Source of the DNA: Escherichia coli
GTDB lineage: Bacteria > Pseudomonadota > Gammaproteobacteria > Enterobacterales > Enterobacteriaceae
Strand: one strand, 5' to 3'
Length of the DNA stretch: 64,000 bases
Assembly: GCF_003018255.1 (NCBI RefSeq)
Contig: NZ_CP027440.1
Both the position numbers and the translations under genes were made by a program. Positions within the stretch are counted from its first letter, which is position 1. Every line of letters starts with the position of its first letter. Under the pieces are notes generated by a model. That model did not search any database. It saw only the letters and a list, made by a program, of their open reading frames with translations, and was not told where the DNA came from. Positions 23,189 through 40,847 of the stretch are shown in pieces.

Positions 23189-23602
23189 CTCACCTTCCCC
23201 CATTAAATACCAACGACACGCTCTGGTGTTTAAATATAATAATGGCATGATTATTATAATTGAATAGGATTATAATAAATGTTCTGTACAACATTTCCTA
23301 CATAAGTAGGAATTACATACACGGATGCCCTTCCAGGTAACCCCATGGGGGGGTTAATATATTTTTAATAGTATATTGAAGATGCCACTGTTTAGTTGAA
23401 TATTAGGTATATGTTCTTTTTTGAAATTTACCGGTGGCTACCGTTAATATTCGCTGTTCCCATTGCAAGCTCCTGGTGGTAACCACTGAATCCTCCATAC
23501 TTGAACTGACTTTTTATCCTCCGACTTTCATCCTGTTCTGACTCCACCTTTTCTTTTCTGCTCTACACTATCTACAGTCCAATCATAAAGGCACATACGA
23601 TC

Positions 23603-38859: not shown

Positions 38860-38975
38860 CTGCCATAACGTGAAGAAGCAATGACCTGGTGGTCCGTGAC
38901 TTCCCTACGCTGGCATTATCCAGATCAGGTGATACGGGTATTTCTCAGCCTTCACAAAGAAGGGCACCCCGAGTC
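38860..38975 (-). promoter_or_regulatory. TPP (THI-box) riboswitch in thiMD leader
   Basis: Minus-strand sequence ...ctcggggtgcccttct...ctgagaaatacccgtatcacctgatctggataatgccagcgtagggaagtcacggacc... matches the thiM thi-box aptamer as recalled. Confidence 0.85.
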
Positions 38976-39072
38976 GTTTGGTTGCGATAATAAATCGCAG
39001 AGGAGGATGGTAATGTCCAGCGCACGCGTTGTAAACGGGGAAAAACGGCGGTATTACAATCGCGTTAATAAA

Positions 39073-39345
39073 TTATTTGATATAAGAATCCAGCACCTTC
39101 AGAACGACATCCAGATCTTCTTCACGTTTTAGCTCATCCCCCTGGTGAACGATGTGTTCCGTCAGATGGCCTTTAATCACTTCCCGCATCAGACCGTTTA
39201 CCGCGCCACGGATAGCAGCAATCTGTTGTAAAACTGCAGCGCATTCATGCGGTTCGTCGAGCATTTTCTTGAGCGCCACGACCTGGCCCTGAATCTTACT
39301 GGCACGCGCTTTCAGTTTCTGTTTATCACGGATTGTATGAGACAT
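39073..39345 (-). CDS. rcnR: Ni/Co-responsive transcriptional repressor RcnR
   Basis: 90 aa ORF recognised as RcnR (CsoR/RcnR family). Confidence 0.9.
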
Positions 39346-39392
39346 GGCAACACCTGGTTAACAAGAATATGAAAAATCATAGCACTATTAAT

Positions 39393-39428
39393 CTACTGGG
39401 GGGTAGTATAAGGTACTGGGGGGGAGTA
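39393..39428. promoter_or_regulatory. Two tandem RcnR operator sites (TACT-G6/7-N-AGTA) in rcnR-rcnA intergenic region
   Basis: tactggggggtagta (39393-39407) and tactgggggggagta (39414-39428), G-tract-centred inverted repeats. Confidence 0.75.
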
Positions 39429-39465
39429 GAATCAGATTGCCGAATTAATACTAAGAATTATTATC

Positions 39466-40290
39466 ATGACCGAATTTACAACACTTCTTCAGCAAGGAAA
39501 CGCCTGGTTCTTCATCCCCAGCGCCATCTTACTTGGTGCGCTTCATGGCCTGGAACCGGGGCACTCAAAAACGATGATGGCGGCGTTTATCATCGCCATC
39601 AAAGGCACCATTAAACAGGCGGTGATGCTCGGACTGGCAGCAACTATTTCGCATACCGCAGTGGTCTGGTTAATTGCCTTTGGCGGGATGGTGATCAGCA
39701 AACGCTTTACTGCTCAATCAGCAGAACCGTGGCTCCAGTTGATTTCCGCAGTGATCATTATTAGCACCGCGTTCTGGATGTTCTGGCGTACCTGGCGCGG
39801 CGAACGCAACTGGCTGGAGAATATGCACGAGCATGATCATGAGCATCATCACCACGATCACGAAGATCACCACGACCATGGACATCATCACCATCACGAA
39901 CATGGCGAGTATCAGGATGCCCATGCACGAGCCCATGCCAATGACATTAAACGACGCTTTGATGGTAGAGAGGTCACCAACTGGCAAATTTTGCTATTTG
40001 GCTTAACCGGTGGCCTTATCCCCTGCCCGGCAGCAATTACCGTGCTGTTGATTTGCATTCAGTTGAAAGCCCTGACACTGGGCGCAACACTGGTCGTCAG
40101 TTTCAGCCTCGGCCTGGCGTTAACGCTTGTCACCGTAGGCGTTGGCGCAGCAATCAGCGTTCAGCAGGTCGCAAAACGCTGGAGCGGATTTAACACTCTC
40201 GCTAAACGCGCTCCCTATTTTTCCAGTCTGTTGATTGGCTTAGTTGGTGTGTATATGGGCGTACATGGCTTCATGGGCATAATGCGATAA
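39466..40290 (+). CDS. rcnA: Ni/Co efflux protein RcnA
   Basis: 274 aa membrane protein with His-rich cytoplasmic loop (HEHDHEHHHHDHEDHHDHGHHHHHEHGEYQDAHARAH). Confidence 0.9.
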   Translation: MTEFTTLLQQGNAWFFIPSAILLGALHGLEPGHSKTMMAAFIIAIKGTIKQAVMLGLAATISHTAVVWLIAFGGMVISKRFTAQSAEPWLQLISAVIIISTAFWMFWRTWRGERNWLENMHEHDHEHHHHDHEDHHDHGHHHHHEHGEYQDAHARAHANDIKRRFDGREVTNWQILLFGLTGGLIPCPAAITVLLICIQLKALTLGATLVVSFSLGLALTLVTVGVGAAISVQQVAKRWSGFNTLAKRAPYFSSLLIGLVGVYMGVHGFMGIMR

Positions 40291-40508
40291 CTCAATCCTT
40301 TAGGCTTGCATGTTATCTTCAGCCCAGGATGATTCTTAAATCAGCTATTTCCGCTGACTCTCTGCTCGCTAAGGATGCTTTTAGGGCATCCTTTCATTTA
40401 CACTTTTTACGAAATCATGGGATCACTAACAAAATATCGCTTGTCAGTTATATTGTATGGCAGGAAAGATATGCGACTGATATTACAGATCCCCAAAGTG
40501 GAGAGTTT

Positions 40509-40847
40509 ATGACCATTAAAAATAAGATGTTGCTGGGTGCGCTTTTGCTGGTTACCAGTGCCGCCTGGGCCGCACCAGCCACCGCGGGTTCGACCAATAC
40601 CTCGGGAATTTCTAAGTATGAGTTAAGCAGTTTCATTGCTGACTTTAAGCATTTCAAACCAGGTGACACCGTCCCAGAGATGTACCGCACCGATGAGTAC
40701 AACATTAAGCAGTGGCAGTTACGTAACCTGCCCGCGCCTGATGCCGGGACGCACTGGACCTATATGGGTGGCGCGTACGTGTTGATCAGCGACACCGACG
40801 GTAAAATCATTAAAGCCTACGACGGTGAGATTTTTTATCATCGCTAA
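40509..40847 (+). CDS. rcnB: Periplasmic Ni/Co homeostasis protein RcnB (YohN)
   Basis: ORF 40329..40847; start placed at ATG 40509 (MTIKNKMLLGALLLVTSAAWA signal peptide, 112 aa). Confidence 0.8.
   Translation: MTIKNKMLLGALLLVTSAAWAAPATAGSTNTSGISKYELSSFIADFKHFKPGDTVPEMYRTDEYNIKQWQLRNLPAPDAGTHWTYMGGAYVLISDTDGKIIKAYDGEIFYHR

Follow-up and report, generated by a model that had tools for sequence, protein, structure and literature searches.

The two inverted repeats found between the divergent genes rcnR and rcnA were almost certainly the tandem 'type 1' operator of RcnR, an Ni(II)/Co(II) sensor of the CsoR/RcnR family. The features found comprised the motif itself, its presence in tandem copies, its genomic position, a cognate repressor encoded next to it, an overlap with promoters and conservation among orthologous loci, and no evidence contradicting the reading as an RcnR operator was found in this analysis. 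The operator pair is already known; it was published for Escherichia coli K-12, and existing knowledge is left unchanged, the pair of E. coli having been defined biochemically in 2009. The additions made here are modest and descriptive, and none would surprise a specialist. They concern the 'N' position of the published motif, which is not free in nature, with site 2 more conserved than site 1 and sometimes the sole site; the arms of the sites, which would double as −10 hexamers; and a set of alleles present at low frequency. Such additions could be of use in engineering operators or in a small survey of how nickel tolerance varies naturally.

Operator sites and flanking genes

A pattern search of the window (the whole stretch of DNA analysed, 64 kb in length) recovered exactly the two strings quoted in the preliminary description. 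Site 1, TACTGGGGGGTAGTA, was located at 39394-39408 and proximal to rcnR, whereas site 2, TACTGGGGGGGAGTA, was located at 39414-39428 and proximal to rcnA, both on the + strand. The placement of two inverted repeats in the divergent rcnR-rcnA promoter region was thereby confirmed, both sites lying inside the 120-bp gap (39346-39465) that separates rcnR (− strand) from rcnA (+ strand). The TACT and AGTA arms are mutually reverse-complementary, each site being an inverted repeat around an asymmetric run of G, of six residues in site 1 and seven in site 2. The fit to the RcnR pattern of TACT and AGTA around a G run, also claimed at that stage, turned out to be an exact match to TACT-G6-N-AGTA, with T as the 'N' of site 1 and G as the 'N' of site 2, and the published K-12 sites are identical; when site 2 is read against that published motif, its seventh G occupies the 'N'. 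Two details of that description needed correction: site 1 begins at 39394, one base later than the 39393 given for its start, and the two sites are separated by 5 bp (TAAGG, 39409-39413, with no strand assigned) instead of 6 bp.

The start-to-start distance between the sites was 20 bp, and a repeat search returned a direct repeat across both of them with a unit of 20 nt and 85% identity. When TACTGGGGGGNAGTA was searched with up to two mismatches, the two sites were the sole matches in the 64-kb window, 0.20 matches being expected from shuffled sequences. The observation of two sites is genuine and not a product of chance. With respect to K-12, a single base of the operator region differed, namely the A at 39410 in the inter-site spacer, which is C in K-12 and in most E. 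coli; no functional difference is expected from this change because it falls outside the recognition motif. A flanking inverted repeat (39382-39397 and 39425-39440) was also considered as an extended symmetric operator, and it was rejected on the poor conservation of its outer arms across species.

The gene on the − strand, rcnR (39073-39345), encodes an Ni(II)/Co(II)-responsive repressor of 90 amino acids that matched the NCBIfam equivalog NF011613 with 197 bits (cut-off 138); the window protein scored 76.5 bits against the FrmR model, under the cut-off of 133 for that model. It was 100% identical to RcnR of K-12. The RASK motif was read from the translation at residues 14-17, and His3, Cys35, His60 and His64, which we take to be the metal ligands of RcnR, were all found in it. 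On the + strand, rcnA (39466-40290; NCBIfam NF007454, 561 bits) is the regulated gene and encodes an Ni/Co efflux permease with a His-rich loop. Its product shared 270 of 274 residues with RcnA of K-12. Three of the four differences fell in the His-rich loop (G122E, Y125H, and H134D, with the K-12 residue first), where residues 121-135 (window 39826-39870) read HGHDYEHHHHDHEHHH in K-12 and HEHDHEHHHHDHEDHH in the window; RcnA seems to vary mainly in this metal-binding loop.

The gene for the periplasmic accessory subunit, rcnB, follows on the + strand at 40509-40847, the coordinates being those that RefSeq gives in a K-12 derivative, shifted to the window (offset +37845). In RefSeq this protein has 112 amino acids starting at the equivalent of 40509, and the program-made open reading frame at 40329-40847 (172 amino acids) over-extends it; no match was obtained for this long frame in the NCBIfam search. 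The order of genes in the annotation of the K-12 derivative (thiD, thiM, TPP riboswitch, rcnR, rcnA, rcnB, yehA) was the same in the window. The TPP riboswitch (RF00059, 71 bits; 38885-38981, − strand) is situated upstream of thiM-thiD, just past the 3' end of rcnR, and corresponds to the expected leader of thiMD. RcnR has been described as regulating the expression of RcnAB (PMC7055735) and as blocking the transcription of RcnA and RcnB (PMC7105576).

Promoters of rcnR and rcnA

Transcription start sites (TSS) were taken from the genome-wide map of MG1655 (Kim et al., 2012, supplementary file 2), in which the read counts considered here were low (11-25) and obtained under non-inducing conditions, and were converted to window positions by subtracting 2,144,473 from the NC_000913.2 coordinate. 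The TSS of rcnR (NC_000913.2 2183841, window 39368, − strand) leaves a leader of 23 nt and lies eight bases past an extended −10 element, TGcTATGAT (39376-39384, − strand; TG at 39384-39383 and hexamer at 39381-39376); at least 90% of the 79 loci aligned kept the TG and, within the hexamer, the T, the A, and the last T. For rcnA two TSS are available, both on the + strand. The downstream one, which is the main start (NC_000913.2 2183912, window 39439; 25 reads), leaves a leader of 27 nt and is preceded by the hexamer TAGAAT (39427-39432), which overlaps the right arm of site 2; its T, A, and final T were conserved in at least 95% of the loci, and other genera presented TATGAT, TATACT, or TACAAT at the same place. 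The upstream one (NC_000913.2 2183891, window 39418; 12 reads) coincides with the first G of the site-2 run and lies eight bases past the hexamer TAGTAT (39404-39409, + strand). This hexamer adds one base to the right arm of site 1, and all six of its positions were kept in at least 90% of the loci, including the T at 39409, which is outside the site. It stands 17 nt upstream of TAGAAT, at the −35 position of the downstream rcnA promoter.

Each TSS thus followed, at a distance of 7-9 nt, a −10-like hexamer overlapping a site or directly adjoining one. The assignment of the promoters rests on the −10 hexamers together with the TSS because the −35 elements are weak or absent. A scan for consensus promoters gave a hit on the + strand (TTGCCG/TATTAT, ending 2 nt before the ATG of rcnA) and a match on the − strand within the coding sequence of rcnR; both disagreed with the published TSS and were discarded.

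Considering the published TSS, the sequence and its conservation jointly, the sites appear to overlap the promoters of both rcnR and rcnA. Site 1 spans approximately positions −26 to −40 of the rcnR promoter, plus the spacer and the −10 of the upstream rcnA promoter, and site 2 spans the upstream rcnA start, plus the spacer and the first two −10 bases of the downstream rcnA promoter. Since the right arm of each site serves at the same time as a −10 hexamer, each 20-bp repeat unit is a module combining an operator with a −10 hexamer.

Natural variants touched these elements in several E. coli strains. The 'N' of site 1 (39404) was mostly T, with C in O55:H7 strains and IAI39 (at most 24 of ~5,358 complete genomes) and G in a few strains (at most 15 genomes). 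The presence of G turns site 1 into a copy of site 2, and with either C or G the TAGTAT hexamer loses its initial T; since a few E. coli genomes do carry these bases, the upstream promoter of rcnA may be dispensable. In strain ETEC4085 an inserted gene for an IS5-family transposase lay a short way upstream of the rcnA start, following a sequence ending in ACTAAGAA (equivalent to ~39458-39466; locus L005, about 205-230), and the insertion parts the operator and the promoter from the expected start of rcnA.

Proposed mode of action

The tandem RcnR operator of E. coli K-12 was reported by Iwig & Chivers (2009, J Mol Biol) as two copies of TACT-G6-N-AGTA. That paper describes an A-form character conferred on the RcnR sites by the G tracts, and non-specific contacts of RcnR with about 50 bp of the DNA around them, by which the DNA is wrapped and one negative supercoil is introduced. 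The motif is repeated in PMC7055735, PMC3902906, and PMC7105576, which class the RcnR sites as tandem 'type 1' within the CsoR/RcnR family. A stoichiometry of one tetramer to one site and minor-groove contacts at the TACT and AGTA arms are given in PMC3902906, where mutation of the AGTA dyad reportedly abolishes regulation. One operator serves both rcnA and rcnR (Blaha et al., 2011, as cited in PMC7055735), and the operator pair has been used in synthetic cobalt-inducible circuits (PMC7105576). For the K-12 protein and sites, to which those of the window are identical, the literature thus covers the binding of apo-RcnR and its stoichiometry, the A-form character of the sites, the wrapping of the DNA, the release by metal, and autoregulation.

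In the mechanism that we propose for the window, metal-free RcnR would bind as one tetramer per TACT-G6-N-AGTA site, reading the arms via the minor groove and recognising the A-form-like shape that the continuous G tract adopts, and would wrap about 50 bp of the flanking DNA. Occupation of site 1 would mask the −35 region of rcnR and the −10 of the upstream rcnA promoter, and occupation of site 2 would mask the upstream rcnA start as well as the spacer and the −10 of the main rcnA promoter. Bound RcnR would in this way cover core elements of all three promoters, and RNA polymerase would be excluded from rcnA(B) and rcnR. Upon binding of Ni(II) or Co(II) by RcnR, through His3, Cys35, His60, His64, and the N-terminus, its affinity for DNA is predicted to fall, which would allow transcription of the efflux genes.

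A different possibility is that the G-rich repeats act mainly via a G-quadruplex or another non-B structure, or by reiterative transcription initiated on the first G of the run, RcnR binding being secondary. The runs of six and seven G are on the same strand, 20 bp apart, but two tracts alone do not make available the canonical intramolecular quadruplex, which takes four. A protein-binding site predicts invariant TACT/AGTA arms and a fixed phasing of 20 bp, and a quadruplex does not. The published rcnA start at 39418 does fall on the first G of the longer run, and the literature credits part of the recognition to the A-form-like geometry of the tract (PMC3902906; Iwig & Chivers, 2009); the latter source describes direct binding of RcnR. 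We give practically no credence to an action through DNA structure, as compared with repression by RcnR bound to the two sites.

Conservation across species and plasmids

A scan made with RcnR over one genome per species yielded 80 loci, 78 of which were usable for site counts; conservation of individual columns was calculated on 79 aligned sequences (the window plus 78 loci), covering ~25 genera. The loci came from Escherichia, Citrobacter, Salmonella, Raoultella, Kosakonia, Rahnella, Hafnia, Erwinia, Edwardsiella, Morganella, and others, with one from Vibrio. Site 2 was exact in 73 of the 78 loci, the rest presenting G8 (two loci), G6 (one locus) or AG6 (two loci) in the place of its G run, whereas site 1 was exact in 59. 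Both sites were exact in 56 loci, in 55 of which the 20-bp phasing was maintained; the distance was 21 bp in the remaining one. Each column of site 2 was conserved in at least 95% of the 79 loci. In four of the five positions of the inter-site spacer (39410-39413), the base of the window was found in just 10-40% of the loci, the length of the spacer being retained. The diagnostic bases of the −10 elements were conserved in at least 90% of the loci for all three promoters. Some species had the G7 site alone, and site 1 was degenerate in Morganella. Judged from this alignment, the G7 site (site 2) is evidently the primary and more constrained one of the two, and the 'N' of the consensus is not free in nature, since most genera had T at this place in site 1 and G in site 2.

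A diverged copy of the rcnR-rcnA pair was present on plasmids. On the IncHI2A plasmid pFJMB80056_1 of Enterobacter hormaechei (locus L090, 419-453), the pair had 76% nucleotide identity overall, and this IncHI2 copy kept the same two sites, with the 5-bp gap and a TGgTATAGT element; the rcnA annotated on it is longer, with ~370 codons. The diverged pair was found in 516 records of large plasmids, most of them conjugative, chiefly from Enterobacter, Ralstonia (partial matches), Salmonella, and Klebsiella.

Outside Enterobacterales, Vibrio europaeus PP-638 (locus L085, upstream of 1501) encodes an RcnR 76% identical to that of E. coli and carries both sites, exact and 20 bp apart; the presence of this module suggests a horizontal transfer of the whole regulatory module. 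In Escherichia whittamii Sa2BVA5 (locus L012, about 1235-1437), the start codon of rcnR abuts sequence matching rcnA from about codon 11 onward. This locus is without the intergenic operator and promoter region and the 5' end of rcnA, owing either to a deletion or to an assembly artefact.

Alleles of the G runs in E. coli

The intergenic region was found in 5,361 of 5,426 complete E. coli genomes, which marks the window as part of an E. coli chromosome, and alleles were counted with exact-match queries of 85-87 nt in ~5,358 of them. The band of matches at ≥99% included ~9 partial-length alignments of 100% identity for those queries containing the wild-type half of site 2, and the counts affected were corrected (from 23 to 14 for the spacer allele with A at 39410, and from 26 to 17 for site 1 with G5); the queries for G8, G6, and AG6 at site 2 should escape this inflation, the 10 genomes counted for AG6 being all of full length.

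Approximately 4,388 genomes (82%) were identical to K-12 over 86 nt. At site 2, G8 was found in 93 genomes, G6 in 118, and AG6 in 10; at site 1, G7 was found in ~27 genomes and G5 in 17. The spacer allele of the window, with A at 39410, was present in 14 genomes. The comparison of G-tract lengths among strains that had been proposed in the preliminary description did therefore reveal variants of ±1, in 3.9% of the genomes at the G7 run and 0.8% (~44 genomes) at the G6 run, against a large majority of genomes that were K-12-identical. These variants were about five times more common at the longer run, in agreement with what slippage predicts. Some of them look real and linked to lineages, with different submitters. 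G8 turned up among strains with the label O121 or O121:H19, deposited by several submitters. G6 was seen among O111:H-/NM strains, one of them being 11128, an early reference genome, and also in some O157:H7 strains, the O157:H7 genomes being split between G6 and G7. Rare ±1 alleles were seen in other genera too. Many of the variant genomes belong to one accession series (CP027xxx, with strain names like 2013C-xxxx), and homopolymer assembly errors probably contribute to the ±1 calls, on the assumption that the series consists of long-read-only assemblies.

These data bear on whether the G7 run of site 2 could be a contingency (phase-variable) homopolymer, in which slippage of ±1 would alter the half-site and the promoter spacing and switch rcnA heritably. 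Its placement would suit such a role, the run being within the operator core as well as within the 17-nt spacer that separates TAGTAT from TAGAAT, and both the existence of ±1 alleles and their greater number at G7 than at site 1, with its G6 run, go in the same direction. Its variability did not. A control run of seven G in non-coding sequence of the window (23347-23353) presented G6, G7, and G9 alleles, with about one quarter of the sampled carrier genomes 1 nt shorter, and was more variable than the operator run; the control is imperfect, as it lies in an AT-rich accessory region present in just 618 of 5,426 E. coli genomes and is flanked by several SNPs, and the comparison is qualitative. 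Besides, G7 was retained in most species-level loci, as given above, and on plasmids, and promoters with spacers of 16 and 18 nt are both expected to be functional, so that an on/off switch is not expected from a change of one base. Typical phase-variable tracts are longer than 6-7 G.

Because G7 was kept in 73 of 78 loci and was less variable than the control run, the operator run appears constrained and not a switch, and we consider phase variation at this site very improbable. The slipped-strand variation anticipated at the difference between the G6 and G7 runs was accordingly borne out no more than weakly: alleles of ±1 exist and are commoner at G7, but the run is constrained and varied less than the control. 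As far as these sequence comparisons allow, the operator G run is a mutable homopolymer within a conserved operator core that appears to be under purifying selection, and not a contingency locus. In the strain 2014C-3338 both the operator region and the segment at 23308-23393, which contains the control run, were exactly as in the window.

One E. coli strain, 97_3250, presented a gap of 100 bp between rcnR and rcnA, as compared with 120 bp (locus L086, 1495-1520), with the loss of one 20-bp unit and the retention of a single site, TACTGGGGGGGAGTA. This looks like a collapse of the tandem repeat, and the resulting single-site layout matches that of some other genera; ~9-10 complete genomes gave alignments shortened in the same way.

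The rare alleles (G8, G6, and the 20-bp deletion of 97_3250) might be functional, heritable regulatory variants, as opposed to neutral noise or assembly errors. We regard this as unlikely. Each of them alters the spacing from TACT to AGTA in the most conserved site, and with the ±1 alleles the 17-nt spacer of the main rcnA promoter also becomes 18 or 16 nt long; if they were functional, particular pathogenic lineages would have a shifted set-point for Ni/Co efflux. Literature searches for polymorphism of the rcn G runs or for adaptive operator mutations gave nothing relevant. An indel of one base that recurred upstream of the paralogous gene frmR in a laboratory evolution study was followed up as a possible hot spot in an operator G tract and rejected.

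Comparison with known systems

In phase-variable promoters of Neisseria and Haemophilus, a homopolymer is situated between the −35 and the −10, and changes in its length alter the spacer. The G7 run of the window shares this placement. In contrast with those tracts, it is short (seven residues), conserved across genera and less variable than the control tract, and no evidence of switching was found at the G7 run of the window.

Among the type 1 operators of other repressors of the CsoR/RcnR family, those of FrmR differ from the pair described here in the sensor and in the effector, which is formaldehyde for FrmR. The type 2 operators of the copper-sensing CsoR proteins (Streptomyces lividans, B. 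subtilis, and M. tuberculosis) are likewise pseudopalindromes with G tracts, in which GTA dyads act as affinity anchors and the DNA has A-form character (PMC3902906). In type 2 sites, 2-4 bases separate two short G/C tracts, the AT-rich arms are ~11 bp apart, and two tetramers bind per site (PMC3902906), whereas the sites of the window have a continuous tract, arms 7 bp apart and one tetramer per site. With the tandem RcnR operator of E. coli K-12, the window shares both 15-nt sites, the spacing of 5 bp, the flanking genes, the repressor itself (100% identity) and the positions of the sites relative to the TSS.
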